Below are positions 5,701 through 61,799 of a stretch of 64,000 nt of DNA, piece after piece. Origin of the DNA: an uncultured delta proteobacterium (GTDB lineage: Bacteria > Desulfobacterota > Desulfomonilia > UBA1062). The notes beneath the pieces were generated by a model. It was not told the origin of the DNA and ran no database searches. It saw only the letters and a list, made by a program, of their open reading frames with translations. Made by a program: the position numbers and the translations under genes. Every line of letters begins with the position of its first letter. Within the stretch, counting starts at the first letter, position 1. The stretch spans positions 1 to 64,000 of the forward strand of contig CAWAUM010000001.1 in NCBI GenBank assembly GCA_963785235.1. Reading direction: 5' to 3'.

Positions 5701-6594
5701 ACATACGACAGCCCTTCTGTTGAAAGGGTCTTGGGGTATACGCCACAGGAGCGTATGAGGCAAAAGGCCAGCGAAATGTTGACCCCGGAATCTTATGCTT
5801 ACGCCCTTGAGGTCCTGAGCGCAGAACTCATGCACGACCAGGAAGAGGGAGTTGATCCGGATAGAACTATCAAACTGGAACTGGAATATTATCACAAAAA
5901 CGGTTCCACGGTATGGATGGAGTGTATTGTTAGCGCTATCCGTGATCATGACGGTGAAATCAGTGGGATTCATGGTGTGTCGCGCGATATCACTCTTCGA
6001 AAACAAGTCGAGGAAGAGCTGAAGAAACACCGTTATCAGCTTGAAGAGCTCGTAAATGAACGCACAGCTGAACTCACAAAGGCATATGAATATCTGAAAC
6101 AGGAGAACGAGGCAAGGAAAGCGGGTGAATCGGCTTTAAGGGCCAGGGAAATGGAACTGGAAAAGGGCCGCCGAGAGCTTGTAGAGATGAATTCCGCACT
6201 GAAGGTTCTGCTCAAACAGAGGGAAGAGGACAAGGTAAACATGGAGATGAATATCATCTCGAATATCAAGACGTCTGTCCTGCCCTACATTGAGAAACTG
6301 GAATCATCCGGCCTTGCAGAGGGCCAGATGAGGATCAGTTCCATGATAAAATCCCTTTTGGGAGAGATCACTTCACCCTTCATCAAGAAAGTCTCCTCGG
6401 AATTCCTTGGCTTCACGCCAAACGAGATACAGGTCGCATCACTGGTCAAAGAAGGGAAGAGCTCGAAAGAAATCGCAGAGATATTAAATATTTCTCTCAA
6501 TACGGTCCATACCTACAGGTATAAGATCCGCATAAAGACTGGGCTGAAAAACAACAAGGTGAACCTGAGGTCTTACCTGCAGACCTTGGGATAG
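2770..6594 (+). CDS. Multi-PAS (about 8 PAS/PAC) one-component regulator with C-terminal LuxR/GerE HTH (two compensating indels near 3037 and 3115)
   Basis: Repeated PAS/PAC units ending in DIT/DIS-xRK-xAE; coiled coil; FTPNEIQVASLVKEGKSSKEIAEILNISLNTVHTYRYKIRIK; no H-box or HATPase. Confidence 0.88.
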
Positions 6595-6983: not shown

Positions 6984-8210
6984 CTATTTCCACGTTCGTT
7001 CGTCAACCAACAGCTTTGTGTCAGTTGAAAGGCTGCCTGGGTTAAGGATCTCCACGCTATCCAGTTTGACGGTACAGATCTCCTGAAAGATTTTTTCGAA
7101 TCGCGCCTGGAATTCATTTCCCAATAAGCCGGCAGCCTGGGCATCGAGCTTGGCGGTCAGGTTGTCCCGATGGCCCGAGCGGCTTATTACAAGCTGAACA
7201 ACAAGTCCGGGGAAGGTTTCACAGACCCTCTTTACCTGGCTTGGGGCAATGAACATACCGCGGACCTTCACTGCGTCGCCCACCCTTCCGGCAATGCCTG
7301 AGAGCCTTAAGCCTGTCCTGCCGCATGGGCATGGCTCCTCGATGATGCTTGAGAGGTCGCCCGTTCCGAAGCGCAGCAGGAAGAAGATGTGGTTCAATCT
7401 TGTCACAACTACCTCTCCCAGCTCTCCGGGGTTGACGGGTTCTCCCGTTGCCGGGTCCACTATCTCAACGATCACCTCCTCGCAGAGGTGCCAGCCTTTC
7501 TTGCCGGAGCACTCATAGGCCACATCCCCCACCTCTGTTGCGCCGTACATCTGAAAGGTATCGATGCCGTAGTCGGTCTCGAAGAGCTGTCTCAGAGAGG
7601 GTTGCAGGGGCTCGGCAGCGAAGCTCGCACGCTTCACCTTGAAATCTCTTGCAAAGTCATAGCCCATCTCCGAGGCCTTGGTGATGATTGCCATGAGGAA
7701 GCTCGGGGTCCCGGTGTAGCCCGTTATGTTCAGGTCCTTTATGAGCTGGACCTGCTGCTGGGTGGCAGAAGATCCCGAGGGAACTACGGTTGCCCCAACC
7801 TTGTTAAGCCCTCCATGGAAGGTGAGGCCTGCCGCTACCATGTGGTAGGAAAAGGCATTGAGCACGATGTCTCCATGTGCGAAGCCTGCTGCCTTGTAGG
7901 CCCTGGCCCAAAGCGGGTCATGGGAACCCAGGTGAGGTTCATAAACCGGCCCCGGAGAGGTGAAGATACGCTCGATAACAGCATTCGGATCAGCCAGCCC
8001 TCCATAGGGAGGCTCCTTTGCCTCCATGTCCACAAGCTGCTCCCGTGAAATTATAGGGAGCTTCACAAGGTCATGGACGGTCTGAATATCGGTCGGCTTC
8101 AAAGAGCGATCCTGGAGGACCGATCTGAGCTTTGGTGAACGCTCAAAGCCCAGCCGGACCATCTCGGAGAGCCTCTTGTTCTGGTATGTCTCCCGCTCAT
8201 GGCGGGTCAT
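6984..8210 (-). CDS. Phenylacetate-CoA ligase (PaaK)-family adenylate-forming enzyme
   Basis: NAFSYH, YTGTPSF, FAAEPL, QMYGATEVG, EEVIVEIVDP, LRFGTGDLS, CPCGRT, GRVGDAVKVRGMFI. Confidence 0.85.
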   Translation of the reverse strand: MTRHERETYQNKRLSEMVRLGFERSPKLRSVLQDRSLKPTDIQTVHDLVKLPIISREQLVDMEAKEPPYGGLADPNAVIERIFTSPGPVYEPHLGSHDPLWARAYKAAGFAHGDIVLNAFSYHMVAAGLTFHGGLNKVGATVVPSGSSATQQQVQLIKDLNITGYTGTPSFLMAIITKASEMGYDFARDFKVKRASFAAEPLQPSLRQLFETDYGIDTFQMYGATEVGDVAYECSGKKGWHLCEEVIVEIVDPATGEPVNPGELGEVVVTRLNHIFFLLRFGTGDLSSIIEEPCPCGRTGLRLSGIAGRVGDAVKVRGMFIAPSQVKRVCETFPGLVVQLVISRSGHRDNLTAKLDAQAAGLLGNEFQARFEKIFQEICTVKLDSVEILNPGSLSTDTKLLVDERTWK

Positions 8211-8288
8211 GGTTTCAAGATCGTCTAGATAATGTGTTCACATCAAACCCCCTCTCACCCTACGATTCATTCATCACTAATCATTCAC

Positions 8289-9101
8289 CTACAGCCACCG
8301 CTTTCTGCGCTTATATGACTTCACGTCCCGGTATGACCTGGCTGTGCCGCCTGCGCTTACCCCGAGGTAGAACTCCTTCACGTCGGGATTCTCCTTCAGG
8401 TTGTCCGCCTCTCCCTCCATCACGACACGGCCATTCTCCATGACATAGCCATAGTGGGCGATCTGCAGTGCCATATTGGCGTTCTGCTCTACCAGGACGA
8501 TGGTGGTCCCCTGTTCTTCGTTGATCCGACGGATGATCCGGAAGATCTCTTTCACAACGAGCGGCGCAAGTCCAAGCGATGGCTCATCTAAAAGGAGCAG
8601 TTTGGGGTGGGCCATGAGTGCCCTGCCCATAACCACCATCTGGAGTTCGCCCCCGCTGCAGTAACCGGCCAGTGCCTTTCTGCGTTTCATCAGGGCAGGG
8701 AAGTAGCCATATACAAGATCCAGGTCCTTCTTGTAGGGCTTGGTCCAGCGTGTTGCCGTCCCGACCTTCAGATTCTCTTCAATGGTGAGGTACTTGAAGG
8801 GCTGCCTTCCCTCCAGGACCTGGATGATGCCCAGGCGGGTAAGCTCCTCGGGAGACAGGTTCTGTACGAGCTCGCCGGCGTATATGATATTGCCGTCCGT
8901 CACCTTGCCGTTTTCCGGCTTGAGCAGGCCGGATATGGCCTTGAGCGTGGTGGTCTTGCCCGCCCCGTTGCTCCCGAGCAACGATACGATGCGGCCCCTT
9001 TGTACATTGAGCGACACCCCCTTGAGCACCTGGATGACATCCGAATAGACAACGCTGATGTTGTTGAGCTGGAGCAGGGTATCGGTAGTAGAGTCTTCCA
9101 T
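8289..9101 (-). CDS. Liv-type ABC transporter ATP-binding subunit (LivF-like)
   Basis: GSNGAGKTT, CSGGELQM, LLLLDEPSLGLAP, VEQNA. Confidence 0.92.
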   Translation of the reverse strand: MEDSTTDTLLQLNNISVVYSDVIQVLKGVSLNVQRGRIVSLLGSNGAGKTTTLKAISGLLKPENGKVTDGNIIYAGELVQNLSPEELTRLGIIQVLEGRQPFKYLTIEENLKVGTATRWTKPYKKDLDLVYGYFPALMKRRKALAGYCSGGELQMVVMGRALMAHPKLLLLDEPSLGLAPLVVKEIFRIIRRINEEQGTTIVLVEQNANMALQIAHYGYVMENGRVVMEGEADNLKENPDVKEFYLGVSAGGTARSYRDVKSYKRRKRWL

Positions 9102-9111
9102 CACATGAACC

Positions 9112-10183
9112 TCAGTAGGAGAACGGCCATAGCCGGAAGGTGGACCGTACGATGCGCCACAGTTCTGCGAGCCCCTTTGGCTCGAACAGGATAAACAGGA
9201 CAATAGCCAGACCAAAGGCAAACTCGCGCAGTGATGCCATGTTGAGCCCGAACCCGCTCAGTGCGGAGATGTTCATCATGGCATCCGTTGCAAAGCGCAA
9301 AACCTCGTTGAGGCCCGTGATGAAGATTGCCCCGAAGATGGAGCCCGGGATGCTGCCGAGGCCCCCGATAATGACCATGGCGATATATTCCACAGAGAGC
9401 CCCAGGGTAAAGGGCTCGGTGGATATGCTCTTCATGTAGTATGCCCACAAAGCGCCTGCAAAGCCTGCATAGAAGGAGCTGATGGCAAAGGCGAGCAGCT
9501 TGTAGAAAAAGATGGGTATACCCATGCCCTCAGCTGCCCGGTCATTGTCGCGGATGGCAATAAAGGCCCTGCCATAGCGTGTTCTCATGAGGTTGGATGC
9601 AACAAAGGTGAGGCCTACCAGACATATGAAGATCAGGTAGAAGAATCGCGTATCCGAGTTGATGGCAAGGCCGAACAGGTTTGCCTCAGGCAGCATGATG
9701 CCCATTGTGCCCTTGGTGAGGCTGTCCCAGTGCACAAGGATGTATTCGATGATAAACTGGCCTGCCAGCGTTGCGATGGTGAGGTAGAGCCCTTTGAGCC
9801 TGCCCGAGGGGATGCCGAAGATCATGCCCACAATAGCGGTGATGAGCCCGGACGCAGGAATCGAGATCCACAAGGGAAGGCCAACCGTAGTGGCCAGGAT
9901 GGCCCCGGCATATGCCCCTACGCCGAAGAAGGCCCCGTGGCCCAGCGAGATCTGGCCTGTGAACCCGATGAGGATATTCAGGCCCAAGGCGGCAATGGCC
10001 GCGATCCCCGTCATGTTGATGACATAGAGCAGATAGGGGGAGCTGATGAAGTGGCACTACCCCGAAGAGGAAGGCGAGCCCGATGAAGGCCCACATGCGG
10101 CCGAAATCCGTCTCGAAGATGGTGAGTTCCTGGCCGTAGTGTTCCTTGTAGTTCCCGCACGGGTGGAATTGAAGCCGCTTCAT
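9112..10183 (-). CDS. Liv-type ABC transporter permease (LivM-like; frameshift near 10050)
   Basis: GFTGQISLGHGAFFGVGAY, RLKGLYLTIATLA, GRAFIAIRDND, IIGGLGSIPG. Confidence 0.9.
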
Positions 10184-10184
10184 T

Positions 10185-11063
10185 CTACACCCTCTCGATC
10201 TCAACCAGGCCGAAGAGGCCATAGGGCTTGATGAGCAGGATGACGACCAGGACGATATACGGGATCACATCGCGCAGTGACGGAGAGATGTATCCGCTCG
10301 TGAAGGTCTCCAGCAGCCCGATGATGATCCCGCCGATAATGGCCCCGCCGATGCTGTCCAGTCCGCCCAGTATGACCACCGGAAAGACCTTGAGCCCGAG
10401 CGAACTGATCTCGTGCACATTGATGCCGTTGATGGTCCCGAGCATAATGCCGCTCATGCCTGCGACCATGGCCGCTATGGCCCAGGACAGGGCAAAGACC
10501 TTCTTCACGTGGACGCCTAAGGACATGGCGGCAGTCTGGTTGTCGGCCACGCTCCGCATATATATGCCCTGGGGCGAGTACTTGAAGAAGAGCCCGAAGA
10601 GCACCAGAAAGATCACTCCCAGCAGCGAGGAGGCCACATATACCGGAGGGATGTAGATAGTGCCCATTTGGATGGCAAGGGCGCCTGGCAGGAAATCGGG
10701 GTAGGTCTGGAGGTTGCCCCCGAAGAAGAACAGGAGCAGTCCCTTGAACATGGAAGCCAGACCTACGGTGAGCATGATGACAAAGATGAGCGACTCGCCG
10801 ATCAAGGGCCGCAGGAAGAGGCGCTCCACAACGAATCCGAGAACGAAGCTTCCGGAAAGGGTGATGAGGAAGGCGAGGATCACCGGGACCTTGATCCACG
10901 ATACCAGCACGAGGAAGAAATATGCGCCCATGGCCATGAGCTGGCCGTGGGCGAAGTTCAGCACGGACGACGACTTGAAGATCATGACAAAGCCCAGGGC
11001 CGACAGGCCGTAGAGAAGTCCGACGCTCAGGCCGTTTATGAGGAGCTGTAAGAAGAATTCCAT
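10185..11063 (-). CDS. Liv-type ABC transporter permease (LivH-like)
   Basis: ALGFVMIFKSSSVLNFAHG, VVILGGLDSIGGA, KPYGLFG. Confidence 0.92.
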   Translation of the reverse strand: MEFFLQLLINGLSVGLLYGLSALGFVMIFKSSSVLNFAHGQLMAMGAYFFLVLVSWIKVPVILAFLITLSGSFVLGFVVERLFLRPLIGESLIFVIMLTVGLASMFKGLLLFFFGGNLQTYPDFLPGALAIQMGTIYIPPVYVASSLLGVIFLVLFGLFFKYSPQGIYMRSVADNQTAAMSLGVHVKKVFALSWAIAAMVAGMSGIMLGTINGINVHEISSLGLKVFPVVILGGLDSIGGAIIGGIIIGLLETFTSGYISPSLRDVIPYIVLVVILLIKPYGLFGLVEIERV

Positions 11064-11089
11064 GTATTCTCTCCTGGTTCGTGCATTTC

Positions 11090-13042
11090 CTAAAACACAG
11101 TTATTACGCGGGCTATTGTCTCGACCATGCCCACCTGTCCATCGCGGTAGCGGACCTTGCCCTTGACAGGCAGTTCCGTCAGTCCTGTGTACATGGCCTC
11201 GATCATGGGCAGGTAGAGGCCGTAGACAAAGCGCCTCCTTACCTTGCCGGTGCGGGTGAGTTCCTCGTCATCGGCATCGAGGAGCTTGTAGAGCAGAATG
11301 AACCGTTTTATCTTCATGGGCCCTGGCAACTGGTCATTGACTGTTTTCACCTCTTCAAGGATGAGTTGCTCGACCTCGGGCCGCCCTGACAGGTCCGTAT
11401 AGGTGGTGTACGGGATCATACGGTCCTCGGCCCAGTTGCCCACATTGCCAAGATCGATGTTGATGAGCGCCGTGATGAATGGCCGGCCCTCACCGAAGAT
11501 GATGGTTTCTTTAATATATAAGGAAAATTTAAGTCTGGTCTCGATGAAGTCAGGGGAGAAGGCATTGCCTTCCTTATCCCTTATGATATCCTGCTTCCGT
11601 CCGATTATCACCAGGTGGCCGTCGTCGTCGAGGTAACCGGCATCCCCTGTCAGGAACCATCCGTTCTCAAATGCCTTTTCCGTTGATTCATAATCATTGT
11701 AGTAGCCTGCGAAGACCGAGTCGGAAAGCAGCATGACCTCCTGGTCTTTGGATATCTTCACCTCGGTGCCGGGCAGGGCCTTGCCCACGGTCTCGGGTTT
11801 CACCTCGTCATCGGGCTGGGCCTGGAAGATGCCGCAGGTCTCTGTGAGGCCGTAACACTGCTTCAGGTTCAATCCGCAGGCCCTGAAAAAGCGGATCACG
11901 TCAGGGCTGATTGGGTGGCCGCCGGTGTAGGCGCTGATGAACCCCGAGCAGCCTACTCGGTCGAGGAGGGGATTGAACACGAGCGCCTTAGCCATACCAT
12001 TGAGGAAACGCAGGCCAAGAGGTAGGGGCTTCCCGGCTGATTTCAGGTCCACACATGCCGTGCCGATCCGTTCGGCATAAGTGAACATGGCGCGGTTGAT
12101 GGGACCGGCATCGTCGATCTTCACCCTGACCTTTGAAGCCAGGTCCTCCCAGAAGCGAGAAGAGGAGATGAGGAGGCCCGGCCCGATATCCCGGAAGTCG
12201 GCCGTCACGGTCTCGGGCGTCTCGGGGAAGTTCATGGTCATCCCGCCGAGCAAGGCCACTCCGAATCCCCACATCTGGTCCACGATCCAGGCGGGTGGGG
12301 TCATGGAGAGCCAGTTGGACCCGATACCCACCGGATTGGATTCGATCCACTTCCTGCCCATTGCCGCATAGTTCCGGTGGGAGAGCATGGCCAGTTTTGA
12401 GATGCCCGTGGTGCCCGATGTCAGGATCATATGGCACACATCGTCCGGCTTTCCCTTGGCAATCTCTTCGGCGAAAAGACCCGGGTGCCTGGTCTCGTGC
12501 CTTTTCCCGAGGTCAAGCAGGTCTTTATAGCTCATGAGGAGCTTGTTATCTCTATACCCCCTCATGCCAGTGGGGTCCACATAGATGATCACCTGGACGT
12601 GCGGGAGTTTGCCCTGCTGCTCCAACAGCTTGTCTACCTGCTCCTGGTCCTGGACCAGGATGAAGCGTGCCTGGATGCGGTTCAGTGCCGATGTGAGCTC
12701 GCTCGCTACGGCAGAGGTGAAGAGGTTCAGGCTGACCGCGCCGAAGGCCTGAGAGCCGAGCTGGCTGAACAGCCACTCCGGGTGGTTGTTCATGATCATG
12801 CCCACATGGTCGTGACGATTGAGTCCTAAGGCCTTGAGCCCAAGCCCGGTGTACTTCACATAAGATAGGTAATCTACCCAGGTGAAGGCCTGCCAGACAC
12901 CATAGGTCTTTTCCCGGATGGCGATGTGTGTGTTGCCGAGTAGCAAGGCCTGATGATCAAGGGCCTGGGGAAGGGTGCAGCTGGAAATCTTGTCCAGGTG
13001 AGCCTGGCTGACCTTGGTTATAGTCTTTCCGTTGTGGCCCAT
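11090..13042 (-). CDS. Long-chain acyl-CoA synthetase-like AMP-binding enzyme
   Basis: LTSGTTGISK, QCYGLTE, GWFLTGDAG, ELTRTGKVRR. Confidence 0.88.
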   Translation of the reverse strand: MGHNGKTITKVSQAHLDKISSCTLPQALDHQALLLGNTHIAIREKTYGVWQAFTWVDYLSYVKYTGLGLKALGLNRHDHVGMIMNNHPEWLFSQLGSQAFGAVSLNLFTSAVASELTSALNRIQARFILVQDQEQVDKLLEQQGKLPHVQVIIYVDPTGMRGYRDNKLLMSYKDLLDLGKRHETRHPGLFAEEIAKGKPDDVCHMILTSGTTGISKLAMLSHRNYAAMGRKWIESNPVGIGSNWLSMTPPAWIVDQMWGFGVALLGGMTMNFPETPETVTADFRDIGPGLLISSSRFWEDLASKVRVKIDDAGPINRAMFTYAERIGTACVDLKSAGKPLPLGLRFLNGMAKALVFNPLLDRVGCSGFISAYTGGHPISPDVIRFFRACGLNLKQCYGLTETCGIFQAQPDDEVKPETVGKALPGTEVKISKDQEVMLLSDSVFAGYYNDYESTEKAFENGWFLTGDAGYLDDDGHLVIIGRKQDIIRDKEGNAFSPDFIETRLKFSLYIKETIIFGEGRPFITALINIDLGNVGNWAEDRMIPYTTYTDLSGRPEVEQLILEEVKTVNDQLPGPMKIKRFILLYKLLDADDEELTRTGKVRRRFVYGLYLPMIEAMYTGLTELPVKGKVRYRDGQVGMVETIARVITVF

Positions 13043-13051
13043 GATAAGCCC

Positions 13052-13858
13052 CTATGCCCCTTCCTGAGTTTCCAGGCCCAGGTCCGTGGTGTCCCCGAGA
13101 TAGGCCCTGATGACATCGGGGTGGTCCTGGATCTCTTCCGGCTTTCCCTCGGCGAGTTTTTCACCGAAGTTGAGCACAATGACACGCTCGGAGATGCTCA
13201 TGACAATGGACATGTCATGCTCCACCAGGATCATGGTCTGGCCCCACCCGTCGTGCAGCTCTAAAAGGAAGCGAACCATATCCTCCTTTTCTTCCAGGGT
13301 CATGCCTGCAAAAGGCTCGTCCAGAACCAGCAGTCTGGGTTCCGAGGCCAAGGCCCTGCCAAGTTCCACACGCTTGCGCAGGCCATAGGGCAGAGAGCCA
13401 ACAAGCTCCTTGCGGATGGACTGCATTTCAAGAAAGTCGATGATCTCTTCCAATATCTCGTGATGTCTGATCTCTTCTGTTTTGACTGAAGGGGAATACA
13501 GGCACGCCAGGGCGAAGTTGTATGATGATCTGGTATGGCGGGCCAGCAGCATGTTCTGGAGAACGGTCATACCCGGGAAGAGCTCGATGTTCTGAAAGGT
13601 CCTTCCGATACCCAGCGAGGTGAGTTTGTGGGTGTGCATATGTACAATGCTCTGGCCGTTAAAGATAATATCGCCGCTTGTCGCCTTATAAAATCCCGTG
13701 ATGCAGTTCAGCAGGCTTGTCTTGCCCGCGCCGTTGGGCCCTATGATTGCCACGAGTTCGCCGGTATGGACCGACAGGTCCACATTCTTGACCGCCTGGA
13801 TGCCGCCGAAGGCGAGAGACAGGCTTTTGACCTCAAGCTCAGCCTGCCTCATCGCCAT
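13052..13858 (-). CDS. Liv-type ABC transporter ATP-binding subunit (LivG-like)
   Basis: GPNGAGKTS, RTFQN, LPYG, LDEPFAG, VEHDM, VIRAYLG. Confidence 0.92.
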   Translation of the reverse strand: MAMRQAELEVKSLSLAFGGIQAVKNVDLSVHTGELVAIIGPNGAGKTSLLNCITGFYKATSGDIIFNGQSIVHMHTHKLTSLGIGRTFQNIELFPGMTVLQNMLLARHTRSSYNFALACLYSPSVKTEEIRHHEILEEIIDFLEMQSIRKELVGSLPYGLRKRVELGRALASEPRLLVLDEPFAGMTLEEKEDMVRFLLELHDGWGQTMILVEHDMSIVMSISERVIVLNFGEKLAEGKPEEIQDHPDVIRAYLGDTTDLGLETQEGA

Positions 13859-13916
13859 CTTGTCGGCGGAGAATATTCGTGGATGCCCTCGAAATGCCCT
13901 CACAAAGAATCCTTTG

Positions 13917-15125
13917 CTACTTCAGTATCTTGATCTTGTCCTTGCCCGGGGTGAAGAAGTTGGTCAGGGGTGTAAAGGTCTCGTTCTCATGGATCTGGAC
14001 TATCCTGCCCTTGAAGGAAGCGCCATGGTCGTCCTTGGTGTAAGTAATATTTGGCACTAATCCTCCGAAGTCCTCATTGTTAAAGGTTTCCATGGCTTTG
14101 TTGATGTTCTCTGGTGTGATTTTTCCGAACTTTTCCTGTGCCCTTATGAATGCCCTCTCCATGATCATGCCCACGACTACGCCCTCCCAGTAGGCGGTGT
14201 CAAAGGAGTCGACGGTCTTGTAGCGCTTCCAGAGTTCTTCCATGATCTTCATGCCAGGGGCTTTGTCCGTGGGCAGGCCGCCGCAGAACTGCATCTTCAC
14301 GCGATCTTTTATAAGTCCTTTACCATTCTTGAAGAAGTCGGGGTCCGTGGATGTCCAGGTGCCTATGAAGATGGGGTTGTAGCCGATGCGGTCCGCGCTC
14401 TTGAGGGTGCTGATGATGGCTGCTGGCAGCATCTGCATGAATACATACTGGGCGCCCTTCTGCTTGAGCCGTAAGAGTTCGGTGGTCAGGTCTACGGTCT
14501 GGGGCGGGAATTCCTCAATTGAAACAAGATCGATGTTTTTTGTCTTGGCGTATTCCTTGCTCGGCTCGTGGATGGAGCGGCCGTAGGGGTTGTTGTAGGT
14601 CAGCAGGCCGATCTTCGGTGCGCCGGGGTCCTTATGGACGGCAGCGATGTACTCCATGACCGCCTGACAGTCGAGCTTGTAGTTGCCGAAAGGCAGGTAC
14701 ATGTAGTCAACCGGCGGCTGCAGAAGCTCCCAGGCCGTGGAGTAGTTGATGGCCGGGATCTTGAACTGCTGCAGCAGAGGTTTTGCCTGCATGCCTTCTG
14801 CCGCCCCCCAGGTGGCTATCATATCCACCTTGTCCTGCATGGCGAATTTCCTCACCGCAGCCACGGCCTCGGATGCCTTATATGCAGTATCCACGGTAAT
14901 CATCTGGATCTTGTTGCCTTTGACGCCGCCCTTGACCTCATTGACGTACTTAAAGTAATCCTGCTGTCCCTTGGCATGGTACTGGCCCCAGGTGGATGCC
15001 GGGCCGGTGAGGTTGATGGCAGCGCCCACCTTGATATCCTTGGCATGCGCGATTGGCGCAGTAATGCAGCAGACTGCAAGCAACAACCCCCCCATAATCA
15101 ATGCTGAACTTACTCTCCCCTTCAT
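13917..15125 (-). CDS. Liv-family (PBP type 1) ABC substrate-binding protein
   Basis: Signal peptide ending AHA; IKVGAAINLTGPAS, NEVKGGVKG, DTAY, YNNPYGR; SD GGAGG before ATG 15125. Confidence 0.88.
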   Translation of the reverse strand: MKGRVSSALIMGGLLLAVCCITAPIAHAKDIKVGAAINLTGPASTWGQYHAKGQQDYFKYVNEVKGGVKGNKIQMITVDTAYKASEAVAAVRKFAMQDKVDMIATWGAAEGMQAKPLLQQFKIPAINYSTAWELLQPPVDYMYLPFGNYKLDCQAVMEYIAAVHKDPGAPKIGLLTYNNPYGRSIHEPSKEYAKTKNIDLVSIEEFPPQTVDLTTELLRLKQKGAQYVFMQMLPAAIISTLKSADRIGYNPIFIGTWTSTDPDFFKNGKGLIKDRVKMQFCGGLPTDKAPGMKIMEELWKRYKTVDSFDTAYWEGVVVGMIMERAFIRAQEKFGKITPENINKAMETFNNEDFGGLVPNITYTKDDHGASFKGRIVQIHENETFTPLTNFFTPGKDKIKILK

Positions 15126-15189
15126 AACACTACCTCCCTTACAGTTTTTTCTGTCCATCACACCTGTGATGGGGTACCGCTTCATGAAC

Positions 15190-15237
15190 AAAAAAAAGCC
15201 GCAGGTAGACAAGTACGGTCTACCTACGGCTTTTTTT
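15190..15237 (-). terminator. Intrinsic terminator (attenuator) in the 5' leader of the ABC operon
   Basis: GCCGTAGGTAGAC-cgtactt-GTCTACCTGCGGC (13 bp, one G-U) followed by T8, about 65 nt upstream of the first ATG. Confidence 0.9.
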
Positions 15238-15271
15238 GACTAGATCTAAAAAAGCTTAAACGCAGGCAGAC
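15218..15271 (-). promoter_or_regulatory. Antiterminator hairpin overlapping the terminator 5' arm
   Basis: GTCTGCCTGCG (15271-15261) pairs with CGTAGGTAGAC (15228-15218); the inner GCTTTTTT/AAAAAAGC helix extends it. Confidence 0.8.
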
Positions 15272-15325
15272 CTAATCAAAAAAGAAAAACCCGAAAGAAT
15301 TATTTGTCAAAATTCTCGTTGCCAT
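15272..15325 (-). CDS. Phe-rich leader peptide MATRILTNNSFGFFFFD
   Basis: ATG GCA ACG AGA ATT TTG ACA AAT AAT TCT TTC GGG TTT TTC TTT TTT GAT TAG; 5 Phe in the last 7 codons; the stop abuts the antiterminator arm. Confidence 0.8.
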   Translation of the reverse strand: MATRILTNNSFGFFFFD

Positions 15326-15334
15326 AGACTAGGG

Positions 15335-15363
15335 CCTTTAAAGAAAACTCCCTAAGAAGTCAA
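15335..15363 (-). promoter_or_regulatory. Candidate sigma70 promoter of the leader
   Basis: TTGACT-N17-TAAAGG; the -10 element is imperfect. Confidence 0.45.
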
Positions 15364-15420
15364 GGGAAAACTGGCAAGAGGTGTAAACTGACGATGCGAT
15401 ATGGTTAGGGTTTTAGCTGA

Positions 15421-15468
15421 CCCGAACAATTCAGTGAGTTTCCGAAGAAACTCACTGAATTGTTCGGG
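15421..15468. repeat. Perfect 22-bp inverted repeat with 4-nt loop
   Basis: CCCGAACAATTCAGTGAGTTTC-cgaa-GAAACTCACTGAATTGTTCGGG. Confidence 0.9.
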
Positions 15469-15497
15469 CTAAGAAAAGATTTCTATCAAAAATCCTC

Positions 15498-16391
15498 TCA
15501 TATCACCGATGGTATCGACCGGTAGTGTTCCTGGCGCTGCTTTTCCGGTAAGGCGAGAAAGGTGTTGATGAGGCGCAGCATCTCTTCCCTGTTTTCATCG
15601 AGCCTGCCGAAGACCTGGATATAGTTGTTTGAATGATCGCAGGCGAGGACTGCAGGCGTTGGATCCAGGGCGGCAATTAGGTCTCTGAGTTCCATAACCG
15701 TGCCTTCAGCGGTCTGTTCAATGAACTCGCCGGCATGTATTTTTTCCATGAGTTTCGACATGGGGTGGATCCACAACCGCCGCACCCGGATAAAGTGGGG
15801 CTTTACCTCATTGATTACACAGGCCGAGCCTTTAACGTGATCTTCCCACAGTGCCTGTCCGCCCAGCCCAAGAAGGAAGTAGAAAGACAACTCCATGCCC
15901 GAGGTCATGGCCTTTTCCCCGGCATCGATGAGCTGTTTCTGGGTGGTACCCTTCTTGTGCAGCGAAAGCACCGCATCCGAACCGCTCTCCATCCCCACAT
16001 GGACCCGGTCTAGGCCCGCATCATGGATGGCAAGGAGCTCCGCTTGCGTCTTCTTGGCCAGGCTTGATGCCCTGGCATAAGCCGTAACCCGATTCACGAA
16101 AGGGAACTTCGCCCTGAGGTGTTTCAGGACTTCTACGAGAAAGTCCGTGGGCAGATGGAGCGGGTTTGCATCGCCTAAAAATGCGGTCTTGAAGATGTCT
16201 CCGTACATTTCATGCAGGGCGTCGATGTCTTTGATCACCTCGCCCACGGTACGCTCGGAGTAGGGGGTATCGAAATAATCGTAAATACCGCAGAACAGGC
16301 ACCGGTTCCAGTTGCAACCGCGTACGGTCCTGATGAGAAGGCTCCTGGCCTCGCTGGGCGGTCTGATCACGAGATGTTCGGGGACATGCAT
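15498..16391 (-). CDS. Radical SAM protein (RPPSE-type, function unknown)
   Basis: IRPPSEARSLL, CNWNRCLFC (CX3CX2C), FLGDAN, HVGMESGSD, DHSNN. Confidence 0.88.
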   Translation of the reverse strand: MHVPEHLVIRPPSEARSLLIRTVRGCNWNRCLFCGIYDYFDTPYSERTVGEVIKDIDALHEMYGDIFKTAFLGDANPLHLPTDFLVEVLKHLRAKFPFVNRVTAYARASSLAKKTQAELLAIHDAGLDRVHVGMESGSDAVLSLHKKGTTQKQLIDAGEKAMTSGMELSFYFLLGLGGQALWEDHVKGSACVINEVKPHFIRVRRLWIHPMSKLMEKIHAGEFIEQTAEGTVMELRDLIAALDPTPAVLACDHSNNYIQVFGRLDENREEMLRLINTFLALPEKQRQEHYRSIPSVI

Positions 16392-60431: not shown

Positions 60432-60468
60432 AAAGAAAAAGAAAACCCCCGGCATATCCCGGGGGTTT
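60432..60468 (-). terminator. Intrinsic terminator after the TolC-family gene
   Basis: AAACCCCCGG/CCGGGGGTTT stem followed by a U-rich tail on the minus strand. Confidence 0.8.
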
Positions 60469-60497: not shown

Positions 60498-61799
60498 CTA
60501 CAAGGTGCCCATGGATGCCTTTAATGCTGCTATGGCCCGTGCATGATCGGCTCGGGCAGTCAGATAGGTGTTCTTCGCCTGCACGAGCATGGTCTGGGCG
60601 TCCAGCACGTCGGTGGTGGTCGCTACCTGGAGGTTGTACCGGTCTTTCTGTATCCTGGCTAATTCTTCAGCCTGGGCTATGGCCTTCTCCGCCACCTGCA
60701 AGCGGGCCGCTGCCTCCTGGATATTGAGGTATGAATTCTTTACCTCCAAGGTTACCAGGTTTTTCTGGCTTTCCAGCAGATACCCTGCCTTGGAGTTCAT
60801 GTATTGTGCCTTGTTGTAGTTCCAGTAGCTTGCACCCCCTGAAAAGAGATTCCAGGTAAGGCCTATGCCTGCCCTCCATGAGTTATAATCGTCTGTATCC
60901 GGATTCTCGCCGGTCCTTTCGTAGCCATAGGTGGCGGCCACACTCGGCATGAAGGCTGACCTTGCCAGGTTTATCCCTTTGGAGGAATTTTCCACCTGGA
61001 GCTTTGCAGTCTTGATTTCCTGCCTGTCTTCCATGGCAGAGGCAAGGGATTGGTCAAAGGTCAGGTCAATGGTTGTGATGGGTATTTCAGAGTCAATGTT
61101 TACCTCCTCCATAAGGTCTCTCTGTAAGAGGATGTTCAGGTTTGCCTCGGCAATCTTGACCGCATTCTCAGTGGTAATAAGAAGCTCCTCGCTTCGTGCA
61201 AATGTCACCTGGGCTTCCAGCAGATCGTTTTTCGGGATCATTCCCTGATTGAAAAAGGCATTGGCCACATCAAGGTGGCTCTTGACAGAAACCAAGTTGC
61301 TCTTGGCCAACTCCCGTTGCTGCCTGGCCTTGATCACGCCGTAGTAGGTATCAATGACCGTGAGCTTGAGGTTGCGGATGAATTTCTGCCTGTCCTGCTC
61401 GGATGCAAGGTAATCGTTCTTGGCGATGAGGTAGTTGTTGTAAAGGGCCCCGCCGGCAAAGAGGACCTGTTTCGCTTCAATGTCGAATTTATAGTTATCT
61501 TTATTACTTAAGGGAACGGTTATGGGCTGCATGGGCAGTGGCAACGGCAAGGTCATGGACTGAGCCTTGTCTATCCGCTGGTACCCATATGACATGTCAG
61601 CCGTAGGGAGCATCTGGGCAAACTGGGACCTCTTGTCCATATCCTTCCCGAGTACGTCCTGATCCTGGGCCTTAACGCCGGGGTTACGCTCGATGGCCAT
61701 GTTGATTGAGTTTTCGAGCGTCATGTAATCGGATGCATGTGCGCTGAATACCCCCAAGAAGAAAAAGCCGATCATGATTATAAAAATAATTTTCCTCAC
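60498..61799 (-). CDS. TolC-family outer membrane efflux protein
   Basis: Signal peptide; AIERNP; two OEP repeats (QVLFAGG, WNLFSGG); DVLDAQ. Confidence 0.9.
   Translation of the reverse strand: MRKIIFIIMIGFFFLGVFSAHASDYMTLENSINMAIERNPGVKAQDQDVLGKDMDKRSQFAQMLPTADMSYGYQRIDKAQSMTLPLPLPMQPITVPLSNKDNYKFDIEAKQVLFAGGALYNNYLIAKNDYLASEQDRQKFIRNLKLTVIDTYYGVIKARQQRELAKSNLVSVKSHLDVANAFFNQGMIPKNDLLEAQVTFARSEELLITTENAVKIAEANLNILLQRDLMEEVNIDSEIPITTIDLTFDQSLASAMEDRQEIKTAKLQVENSSKGINLARSAFMPSVAATYGYERTGENPDTDDYNSWRAGIGLTWNLFSGGASYWNYNKAQYMNSKAGYLLESQKNLVTLEVKNSYLNIQEAAARLQVAEKAIAQAEELARIQKDRYNLQVATTTDVLDAQTMLVQAKNTYLTARADHARAIAALKASMGTL

Follow-up and report, generated by a model that had tools for sequence, protein, structure and literature searches.

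A predicted phenylalanine-codon attenuator upstream of an ABC transporter/CoA-ligase operon in uncultured Desulfobacterota

Introduction

The trp attenuator of E. coli (trpL) is described by a four-segment model, and for phenylalanine Rfam holds the Phe_leader family (RF01859). Leader-peptide attenuators precede pheA and pheST in E. coli (pheL-pheA and pheM-pheST; PMC3082878) and, in the part of this source consulted, pheL-like genes outside the gamma class are mentioned only for Bacteroides and Desulfobacterium autotrophicum, where they are located before pheA. In mycobacteria, leaderless polycysteine short ORFs are reported to act as Cys-responsive attenuators (bioRxiv 10.1101/834739).

Here, we describe an element on the minus strand of a 64-kb window (the whole stretch of DNA analysed, 64,000 nucleotides) that is highly likely to be a transcription attenuator of the trp/phe/his type, in which a translating ribosome senses charged tRNA-Phe. 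It resembles pheL-pheA and pheM-pheST in having a short ORF with a Phe run, alternative hairpins and, as predicted, read-through when Phe-tRNA-starved ribosomes stall. It differs from them in that its target genes encode a Liv-type ABC transporter and two CoA ligases instead of being pheA or pheST, the Phe run is at the extreme C-terminus with its last two codons pairing with the A-tract of the terminator, the leader lacks a Shine-Dalgarno sequence and has its ATG 9 nt past a -10-like box, and the host belongs to an uncultured Desulfobacterota lineage. Like trpL, it has a predicted 1:2 helix (here of 17 bp), a 2/3 antiterminator and a 3:4 terminator, with the regulatory codons in segment 1 and with an antiterminator 5' arm that a ribosome at the stop codon would cover. 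In trpL this arm is segment 2 itself, whereas here it is located between the first two segments and overlaps segment 1 by 5 nt; moreover, the regulatory codons specify Phe. As reported for the mycobacterial system, a short ORF rich in one amino acid at the 5' end of a leaderless transcript would control the operon behind it; the phylum and the amino acid are different, and the leaderless start is here deduced from promoter spacing alone.

Results

The preliminary description of this DNA had listed a TTGACT-N17-TAAAGG motif, a leader ORF, an arm starting after its TAG and a terminator with T8, all of which are present base for base on the minus strand (Table 1). As for the proposed promoter, both hexamers exist, are separated by 17 nt and lie in conserved DNA: CTTGAC and the TTTCTTTAAA block are each kept in 33/33 aligned sequences of relatives, and TA is invariant as the first two positions of the -10-like hexamer. 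However, TAAAGG is a weak -10 element that matches the sigma-70 consensus TATAAT at 3/6 positions and lacks the T at position 6, and a sigma-70 consensus scan reported no promoter under its strict rule.

Table 1. Positions of the leader elements and downstream genes, and related leaders of the same genome
Feature	Position	Strand	Remarks
-35-like hexamer TTGACT	15358..15363	-	T-rich stretch just 5'; exact match to the preliminary description
-10-like hexamer TAAAGG	15335..15340	-	within conserved block TTTCTTTAAAGG; putative function
Leader ORF MATRILTNNSFGFFFFD + TAG	15272..15325	-	17 codons; ATG at 15325, TAG at 15274-15272
Segment 1, UUUUUUGAUUAGGUCUG	15267..15283	-	last two Phe codons, Asp, stop and 5 nt beyond; 5' arm of anti-antiterminator helix
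Antiterminator outer 5' arm, GTCTGCCTGCG (GUCUGCCUGCG)	15261..15271	-	begins at the base right after TAG
Inner antiterminator helix, GCTTTTTT (GCUUUUUU) with AAAAAAGC, and loop	15229..15255	-	15255-15248 with 15236-15229
Segment 2, UAGAUCUAGUCAAAAAA	15232..15248	-	3' arm of 17-bp helix with segment 1
Intrinsic terminator	15190..15231	-	stem 15231-15218 with 15210-15197, 7-nt loop, T8 15197-15190
Small hairpin CCATCAC-AGGT-GTGATGG	15155..15172	-	between terminator and ribosome-binding site
Shine-Dalgarno sequence AAGGGAGG of binding-protein gene	15140-15133	-	
Periplasmic binding protein, Liv/HAAT type (Peripla_BP_6)	13917..15125	-	Pfam E = 2.4e-49; first structural gene
LivG-like ATPase	13052-13903	-	
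AMP-binding acyl-CoA ligase	11090-13042	-	650 aa
Two permeases	10185-11063, 9112-10014	-	
LivF-like ATPase	8289-9221	-	
PaaK-family CoA ligase	6984-8210	-	408 aa
Convergent gene	starts 3181	+	
YYYGFYF leader (Tyr/Phe)			before IorA/IorB/PaaK genes (iorAB-paaK)
FYGYYFWF..W leader (Phe/Tyr/Trp)			before DAHP synthase
WWW leader (Trp)			before trpE
LLLL leader (Leu)			before leuA-like gene

In the leader ORF, Phe accounts for 5 of the last 7 sense codons, i.e. codon 11 (15295-15293) and codons 13-16 (15289-15278). Upstream of its ATG, a Shine-Dalgarno sequence is absent and the ATG is only 9 nt 3' of TAAAGG; the mRNA that serves for translation of the leader is therefore probably leaderless or almost so. 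Runs of the type (TTY)4 occur twice in the window versus 0.15 expected; the second one, at 60432-60443, was rejected as a leader and is the T-rich terminator tail after the gene at 60498-61799.

The terminator arms GCCGTAGGTAGAC (15230-15218) and GTCTACCTGCGGC (15210-15198) form 13 bp including one G-U, or 14 bp when A15231-U15197 is included, and the T8 ends 65 nt before the ATG of the binding-protein gene. The terminator 5' arm is common to the antiterminator and the terminator. Because it is symmetric, with an A-run before and a T-run after, the terminator could also stop transcription on the opposite strand, and a consensus terminator scan reported only a partial plus-strand reading of it. 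Segments 1 and 2 form 17 contiguous bp that are part of the minimum-free-energy (MFE) fold of this copy, and the A-tract of segment 2 is also part of the inner antiterminator helix. This 17-bp helix was not listed in the preliminary description; adding this predicted 1:2 anti-antiterminator helix to the model given there would complete the four segments of a trp-type attenuator. Folding of 15185-15330 gave z = -6.5, and 0/200 shuffles were equally stable.

When 185,579 species genomes were scanned for the pattern, 33 loci emerged, all from records titled as uncultured Desulfobacterota, and the entire arrangement is repeated in 33 distinct relatives; codon and helix statistics refer to 32 distinct sequences, frame and mask-folding counts to 33 sequences. 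When the first long ORF after each leader was taken, 26/33 loci gave a match to the binding protein and 6 gave another frame; L047 has no downstream DNA. L028, L027, L040, L049 and L052 were judged by this first-ORF test alone; L027 is identical to L015 and L028 to L012, and both L015 and L012 matched the binding protein. In family f1, the leader is upstream of the orthologous binding-protein gene in 18/18 loci that include upstream DNA, and a covariance model found one full-length copy (E <= 2.3e-11) in 35/52 genomes, G000 counted.

The leader ORF itself is conserved as a reading frame. An in-frame ATG is present in 33/33 sequences, and the distance from ATG to TAG is 48, 51, 54 or 60 nt in 7, 17, 8 and 1 sequences, respectively, always a multiple of 3; accordingly, indels in the leader come only in multiples of three. 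Each of the 33 leaders has 4-6 Phe codons, and the N-terminal residues diverge freely among relatives. The last four Phe positions are occupied by TTT 21/TTC 11, TTC 32, TTT 29/TTC 3 and TTT 31/TTC 1 in the 32 distinct sequences and by no other codon, the last two being additionally constrained by pairing with the A-tract. This assembly has frameshifts elsewhere, which split iorA, iorB, paaK and a gene for a binding protein, so the homopolymer lengths in this copy are not fully reliable; the leader frame is the same in 32 other assemblies.

Among the stems, the terminator is 96.9% paired and has 4 pairs changed on both sides (24 cells), which 0/500 shuffles reach. Thus, the search for conserved Phe codons and covarying stems that the preliminary description had suggested yielded Phe encoded only by TTT/TTC and a terminator with 4 compensatory pairs. 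It had also proposed that the arm after the TAG nearly copies the terminator 3' arm and competes for the 5' arm. This complementarity is kept: the antiterminator outer arm is 95.5% paired with 15228-15218 versus 26-48% when slid, changes preserve wobble pairing, and in the alignment an A in column 84 always coincides with a U in column 147 (AU 5, GC 13, GU 14; A-C none). The 1:2 helix is paired in 93.1% of cells in the 32 distinct sequences versus 44-63% with the partner slid, and its shuffle control was not exceeded (186/500). Both this helix and the antiterminator have one-sided changes only, since their 5' arms hardly vary.

To represent the ribosome, its footprint was masked in transcripts ending before the terminator 3' arm, and the antiterminator was called at >= 7 pairs. 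With the A-site at Phe 1-3 of the run, the antiterminator formed in 33/33 sequences; with the A-site at Phe 4, it formed in 25/33; and with the A-site at the last sense codon or the stop, in 0/33, the outcome that the preliminary description had anticipated for folding with and without the footprint. The terminator is present in the full-length MFE fold of 33/33 sequences. In ribosome-free transcripts ending before the terminator 3' arm, the MFE fold has the 1:2 helix in 16/33 and the antiterminator in 17/33. Because the 1:2 helix wins in only 16/33, default termination would depend on the order of folding rather than on equilibrium.

Contigs from RNA libraries (4 runs, small shares) over 14000-15500 are pieces of the binding-protein gene, from 14002 to 15047. 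None covers 15071-15500, and since transcript starts and ends are unreadable from contigs, they have no bearing on expression of the leader.

The same genome has four further leaders with the same scaffold logic and with a codon content that fits the downstream gene (Table 1). These predicted sister leaders are independent support for the attenuator reading. The leader before iorA is kept, with varying Tyr/Phe mixes, in 15/20 other family-f1 iorA loci read. The ATGs of sister leaders are 6 nt past TATATA or TATAGA, a spacing that fits leaderless mRNAs as predicted for the Phe leader. Their C-termini read ..GVCP, ..PPVG and ..RGGLS, with the aromatic codons 6-13 codons before the stop, and no Rfam family matched the sister loci at gathering score. 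A genome-wide leader scan requiring perfect stems excludes even the present target; a relaxed scan gave 51 candidates, and of the 7 inspected only the leuA-like candidate resembles an attenuator. No Phe leader was seen before pheA (chorismate mutase/prephenate dehydratase; G000 C3, ~17.7 kb).

Beyond the binding-protein gene, the operon spans 6984..13903. The closest solved chain to the binding protein is 3lkb_A (E = 5.4e-34), named an amino-acid binding protein; 4evs and 4f06, presumably aromatic-acid binders, match at only ~1e-6, and the names in the match list are generic. Against NF041878, the PaaK-family protein reaches 227.9 bits, far under the 700-bit cut-off. An ORF at 9686-10222 on the minus strand was considered as the split N-terminus of the second permease and has no Pfam match. 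Because the codon content of the sister leaders fits their pathway genes, the operon probably supplies Phe, either by importing Phe or by importing and CoA-activating a Phe precursor such as phenylacetate.

Discussion

Based on the frame, the Phe codons, the stems, the mask folds and the sister leaders, which all agree with the attenuator proposed in the preliminary description, we suggest the following model. Transcription would start at the leader ATG or a few bases before it, and a ribosome would translate the 17-codon leader. When Phe-tRNA is scarce, the ribosome would stall at codon 11 or codons 13-16 and cover segment 1, leaving GUCUGCCUGCG free. Aided by the inner GCUUUUUU/AAAAAAGC helix, GUCUGCCUGCG would then pair with the newly transcribed CGUAGGUAGAC; with the terminator 5' arm occupied in this way, RNA polymerase would read through into the seven-gene binding-protein/ABC/CoA-ligase operon. 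When Phe-tRNA is plentiful, the ribosome would reach the UAG; because its footprint there covers GUCUGCCUGCG, the terminator would form and transcription would stop at T8. If the leader is untranslated, the Phe codons and the stop would pair with the A-tract segment over 17 bp, leaving the terminator free. The transcription start, translation of a leader that lacks a Shine-Dalgarno sequence, and a response to Phe are all predictions from the sequence.

Could the element instead be a ligand- or protein-binding switch, such as a riboswitch, a T-box-like element or protein-mediated antitermination, with the short ORF being incidental? The higher conservation of the post-stop region and the two arms compared to the N-terminal codons points in this direction, as do the missing Shine-Dalgarno sequence and a U-run in the last Phe codons that is partly explained by A-tract pairing. 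We nevertheless regard such a switch as very unlikely. The element matches no Rfam family: at E up to 10, 14700-15900 gave no leader family, T-box or riboswitch, the best cis-regulatory match was the trpB motif (22.8 bits versus a gathering score of 59), and there were otherwise only microRNA-type matches to the long hairpin at 15405-15486 and noise below threshold. Moreover, insertions and deletions between the start codon and the run of Phe codons are always multiples of 3, and the Phe codons not involved in the helix, namely the first of the run of four and the TTC further 5', remain Phe through TTT/TTC changes. Nor would such a switch account for sister scaffolds in which Tyr, Trp or Leu codons take the place of Phe according to the pathway downstream.

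A reading that keeps the peptide as the sensor is a TnaC-like nascent arrest peptide, FFFF(D/G/E/V)-stop, that responds to free Phe or to the state of the ribosome at the stop and not to codon starvation. It would fit a Phe run that is directly C-terminal in 33/33 leaders and a residue before the stop that is restricted to D (21), G (7), E (2) and V (2) in the 32 distinct sequences. However, a ribosome arrested at the stop would cover the antiterminator arm, with the same 'off' outcome as normal termination, so that no extra sensing is needed; the position of the Phe run is explained by the A-tract pairing, and the sister leaders, with other C-termini and more distant aromatic codons, depart from the arrest motif. 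We consider this reading extremely improbable. The same applies to the idea of a constitutive promoter with a leaky terminator, or of an insulator after the upstream radical-SAM gene, in either case lacking amino-acid sensing: the symmetric A-run and T-run would suit a plain terminator, but such a terminator needs no in-frame ATG, Phe run and post-stop copy of its own 3' arm, all conserved in 33/33 sequences, and the upstream gene comes with a separate long hairpin at 15413-15477.

The predicted attenuation mechanism is classical, and we found no description of this type of target operon. The preliminary description knew of no Phe attenuator for such a transport/ligase operon; our literature search, with most subscription journals outside its reach, likewise found none and no paper tying leader-peptide attenuation to IOR, aryl acids or such an operon. 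The attenuator reading would mark a very common, unannotated operon of anaerobes, encoding an ABC importer and two acyl-CoA ligases, as 'expressed when Phe-tRNA is short'. Combined with the Tyr/Phe leader of iorAB-paaK, it is an argument for indolepyruvate:ferredoxin oxidoreductase running biosynthetically here; this would be aryl-acid salvage, which is known from rumen bacteria and methanogens. Auxotrophy does not force salvage, since the genome encodes the de novo pathway (prephenate dehydratase, chorismate synthase and prephenate dehydrogenase). If the reading is correct, leader codons could help to predict which substrates the downstream genes handle. Also, because the ATG is 6-9 nt past the -10 box in four leaders of this genome, the data suggest attenuation driven by leaderless translation outside Actinobacteria.

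Taking these elements jointly, we tentatively speculate, as a possibility that we hold to be less likely than not, that the operon of Liv-type ABC transporter, FadD-like ligase and PaaK-like ligase serves anabolic aryl-acid salvage: upon Phe starvation, phenylacetate or a close analogue would be imported and made into a CoA thioester, and the separately attenuated IorAB/PaaK operon would carboxylate it reductively to phenylpyruvate, giving Phe. With the leaders before the DAHP synthase, trpE and leuA-like genes, this would constitute a codon-coded regulon on one RNA scaffold, with leaders read from leaderless mRNAs in this lineage and with attenuation replacing the repressor proteins of aromatic amino-acid metabolism of model bacteria across much of Desulfobacterota.

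The RNA family is absent from Rfam 15 and extends across several families of Desulfobacterota, the scaffold GGTCTGCC...GGCAGACC being common to several families in a phylum-wide search. In the alignment, other genera have different hairpins at the position of the small CCATCAC-AGGT-GTGATGG hairpin.

Architecture of the Phe leader element

The element upstream of the ABC transporter/CoA-ligase operon is very probably a real, conserved and classical Phe-sensing leader-peptide attenuator. The promoter-like hexamers, ORF, antiterminator and terminator arms and T8 run listed in the preliminary description are each present when the minus strand is read over positions 14900-15700 (see table). Folding of the 146-nt stretch yields -49.5 kcal/mol, a stability that 0 of 200 shuffles attain (z = -6.5). 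This fold also contains 17 contiguous base pairs, absent from the earlier list, between UUUUUUGAUUAGGUCUG (the last two Phe codons, the Asp codon, the stop codon and five further bases) and UAGAUCUAGUCAAAAAA. With this helix between segments 1 and 2 (1:2 helix), in which the last Phe codons and the stop codon pair with an A-tract, the element as modelled is a full four-segment attenuator.

Features of the Phe leader locus and of candidate sister attenuators in the source genome
Feature	Location	Strand	Evidence or remark
-35-like TTGACT	15363-15358	-	sequence; 17 nt to next hexamer
-10-like TAAAGG	15340-15335	-	sequence; 9 nt before leader ATG
Leader ORF MATRILTNNSFGFFFFD	ATG 15325, TAG 15274-15272	-	sequence
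Antiterminator outer 5' arm GTCTGCCTGCG	15271-15261	-	sequence
Inner antiterminator helix GCTTTTTT / AAAAAAGC	15255-15248 / 15236-15229	-	sequence
Terminator arms GCCGTAGGTAGAC / GTCTACCTGCGGC	15230-15218 / 15210-15198	-	sequence
T8 run	15197-15190	-	sequence
Binding-protein gene ATG	15125	-	strong AAGGGAGG ahead of ATG
Tyr/Phe leader MFEKTATRAYYYGFYFRKGVCP-stop	contig C10, ATG 160779 (locus L056 ~6152-6289)	-	antiterminator and terminator present
Phe/Tyr/Trp leader MITVSAHSFYGYYFWFRKWPPVG-stop	contig C5, locus L150 516-587	+	before DAHP synthase
Trp leader MKKKIHLMKANRWWWRAMNKVMRGGLS-stop	contig C12, ~248150	-	terminator present; before trpE
Leu leader MKLFKNTYQPLLLLCLKTINRRPSFLGCP-stop	contig C3, 411198	-	same GGCCATGGGC-type terminator

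Downstream on the minus strand are genes for a Peripla_BP_6 binding protein, a LivG-like ATPase, a 650-aa AMP-binding ligase (best match FadD11, sub-threshold), two Liv-type permeases, a LivF-like ATPase and a 408-aa PaaK-family ligase (227.9 bits vs a 700-bit cut-off), and a convergent sensor-kinase gene follows the last of these. The space that separates the terminator from the ribosome-binding site holds a small hairpin (15155-15172, minus strand), which may be a stabiliser or processing site; relatives in other genera have different hairpins at the equivalent place (ATGCAC...GTGCAT, CCATGG...CCATGG). Upstream of the leader is a radical-SAM gene with its own 22-bp perfect hairpin just 3' of the gene (15413-15477, both strands, arms CCCGAACAATTCAGTGAGTTTC / GAAACTCACTGAATTGTTCGGG). 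This hairpin draws spurious microRNA matches in Rfam, and relatives have hairpins of equal length and quite different sequence at this place.

Conservation of the leader and of its pairings

Among 41 related genomes searched with the binding protein, 21 have an orthologue. The Phe leader is present upstream of it in all 18 loci with upstream DNA from family f1, to which the source genome belongs, and absent at both loci from the neighbouring family f2 (binding protein 58-61% identity); two loci that end before the upstream DNA are outside this count. An exact-pattern scan of a collection of species-representative genomes gave 33 loci, all in metagenome-assembled genomes whose titles name Desulfomonilia, Deltaproteobacteria, Syntrophaceae or Thermodesulfobacteriota. 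By scripted ORF choice, the first long downstream ORF matches the binding protein in 26 of the 33; at six loci another frame was chosen and one (L047) ends too early. Two of the six (L027 and L028) are identical in sequence to L015 and L012, where the downstream gene does match the binding protein, and the downstream-gene count leaves out the other four and L047.

In the alignment of leader relatives (33 distinct sequences, duplicates removed), the leader ATG never changes. TAG follows it at a distance of 48, 51, 54 or 60 nt (7, 17, 8 and 1 sequences) and, therefore, all indels are whole codons. The N-terminal residues are free to diverge, and every leader keeps four to six Phe. The last four Phe codons vary by TTT/TTC swaps only (21/11, 0/32, 29/3 and 31/1 in 32 distinct sequences), and the last two are almost always UUU, as would be expected if pairing with the A-tract were also required.

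In the terminator, 96.9% of cells are paired (29-44% with the partner slid), and four pairs have changed on both sides (24 cells), which 0 of 500 shuffles reach. The alignment of upstream regions proposed in the preliminary description bears out both conserved Phe codons and two-sided changes in the terminator. The outer antiterminator helix is paired in 95.5% of cells vs 26-48% with the partner slid; its changes are one-sided and wobble-preserving, e.g. columns 84/147 have 13 G-C, 14 G-U, 5 A-U and no A-C. For the 1:2 helix the values are 93.1% vs 44-63%, and the shuffle control is not beaten because the 5' arm is fixed by coding.

Predicted switching by the leader ribosome

For masked folding, transcripts ended just short of the terminator 3' arm, and all bases were masked as far as 13 nt beyond the first nucleotide of the codon in the A-site. 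When this codon is codon 11 or either of the first two in the Phe run, the window copy forms the full antiterminator (-28.9 kcal/mol); at the third and fourth codons of the run it forms a smaller one (-22.1 and -16.8 kcal/mol); with the ribosome at the stop codon, the antiterminator is gone. Across the alignment, at least seven antiterminator pairs form at Phe codons 1-4 in 33, 33, 33 and 25 of 33 sequences, and in 0 of 33 with the A-site at the last sense codon or the stop codon. The terminator is contained in the full-length minimum-energy fold of all 33. The folds thus agree with the switch originally predicted, i.e. stalling at Phe favouring the antiterminator and a ribosome at the stop codon the terminator. 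As ribosome-free cut transcripts, 16 sequences favour the 1:2 helix and 17 the antiterminator; given this near-even split, termination without leader translation would depend on the order of folding.

The leader ATG lacks an upstream Shine-Dalgarno sequence, in contrast to the binding-protein gene with its AAGGGAGG. The TA-rich -10-like hexamer closes the conserved block, and a consensus promoter scan rejected it as a promoter. Promoters are clearer at two sister leaders of the source genome (TTGCCC-N17-TATATA-N6-ATG for DAHP synthase and TTGACA-N17-TATAGA-N6-ATG for trp). From this spacing, we infer that the mRNAs of the Phe leader and its sisters begin at the leader ATG or very close to it. 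Attenuation by leaderless short ORFs has a precedent in mycobacteria (bioRxiv 10.1101/834739).

Related candidate attenuators in the same genome and in Desulfobacterota

The whole source genome was scanned for terminators preceded by a short ORF rich in one residue; together with follow-up searches, this identified four further candidate attenuators (see table). The Tyr/Phe leader (ior leader) precedes genes for IorA (642 bits) and IorB, the subunits of indolepyruvate:ferredoxin oxidoreductase (IOR), PaaK (579 bits), an ACT-like protein and another Liv-type binding protein; the Leu leader precedes what is presumably a 2-isopropylmalate synthase gene, judged by its N-terminus. In masked folding, the ior and DAHP-synthase leaders have the same on/off logic as the Phe leader. 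The ior leader is upstream of iorA in 15 of 20 other family-f1 loci read, with a genus-dependent Tyr/Phe mix (YYYGFYF, YYFFIYF, FYFFIF, FTFFLSFF and others); it was not seen at L072, L076 and L077, and the iorA loci L061, L062 and L065, viewed without translation of the sequence, look similar. None of nine f2 loci has it. At the ior locus (L056, C10:154500-161500), four genes read as frameshifted: the C-terminal ferredoxin part of iorA is in another frame, iorB and the binding-protein gene are each two ORFs, and the paaK N-terminus is split off. Probably, the assembly contains homopolymer errors, which makes the lengths of the T-run and A-run in the window less certain. On the strand opposite to the DAHP-synthase leader lies a cobalamin riboswitch (87.3 bits, L150 259-423).

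A covariance model built from the alignment matches one full-length copy (E <= 2.3e-11) in 35 of 52 family-f1 genomes, including the source genome; no match of this strength was found in 70 f2 genomes. Weaker matches, once fetched, are mostly DAHP-synthase leaders (M..RYYG(F/Y)YFWF..PPVG-stop), and the f2 genus g16 has a longer Tyr/Phe/Trp leader before this gene. In an even sample of the phylum, 16 of 151 genomes have matches at E <= 0.001. Among ten of these loci read, three combine a Phe-rich leader with a downstream gene for a Liv-type binding protein, of which that at L141 has an N-terminus closely similar to the window's; two have Tyr/Phe/Trp leaders before DAHP synthase; and two from other families (L143 and L149) have aromatic-rich leaders, e.g. 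MPRKEVFDQTAKGYYYYYYFWGGGLPIG-stop, before what we take to be shikimate kinase. No leader was seen in the remaining three. The arms GGTCTGCC...GGCAGACC common to the phylum loci suggest that the element belongs to a scaffold family spread through Desulfobacterota.

Novelty and possible function of the operon

This kind of attenuator is known, and the target operon is unusual for it. No Rfam 15 family matches the Phe leader locus or the sister loci. Full-text literature, with most subscription journals outside its scope, gave no paper that describes IOR, aryl-acid salvage or this operon type as controlled by a leader peptide, in line with the preliminary description, which names no described Phe attenuator on such an operon. 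For Bacteroides and Desulfobacterium autotrophicum, possible pheL genes ahead of pheA have been noted (PMC3082878). The present analysis adds the leader of iorAB-paaK in the source genome, the 1:2 helix of 17 bp and a promoter spacing of the leaderless type. The main earlier claim, a Phe-sensing attenuator upstream of this operon, agrees with the anatomy, the conservation in relatives and the masked folds, with Phe sensing itself predicted from sequence.

A role of the operon in Phe supply is argued most strongly by the way in which leader codons track the downstream pathway: all three aromatics before the common first enzyme, Trp before trpE, Tyr and Phe before the aryl-pyruvate oxidoreductase, and Phe alone before the window operon. 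Two readings of such a role remain. The transporter may import Phe, with the ligases having another role. Alternatively, the operon may encode phenylacetate uptake and CoA activation, feeding IOR-dependent reductive carboxylation to phenylpyruvate, a route that operates in rumen bacteria and Methanococcus maripaludis. The source genome also encodes the de novo Phe route, and no Phe leader was seen before its pheA; salvage would, therefore, be an economy rather than a necessity.
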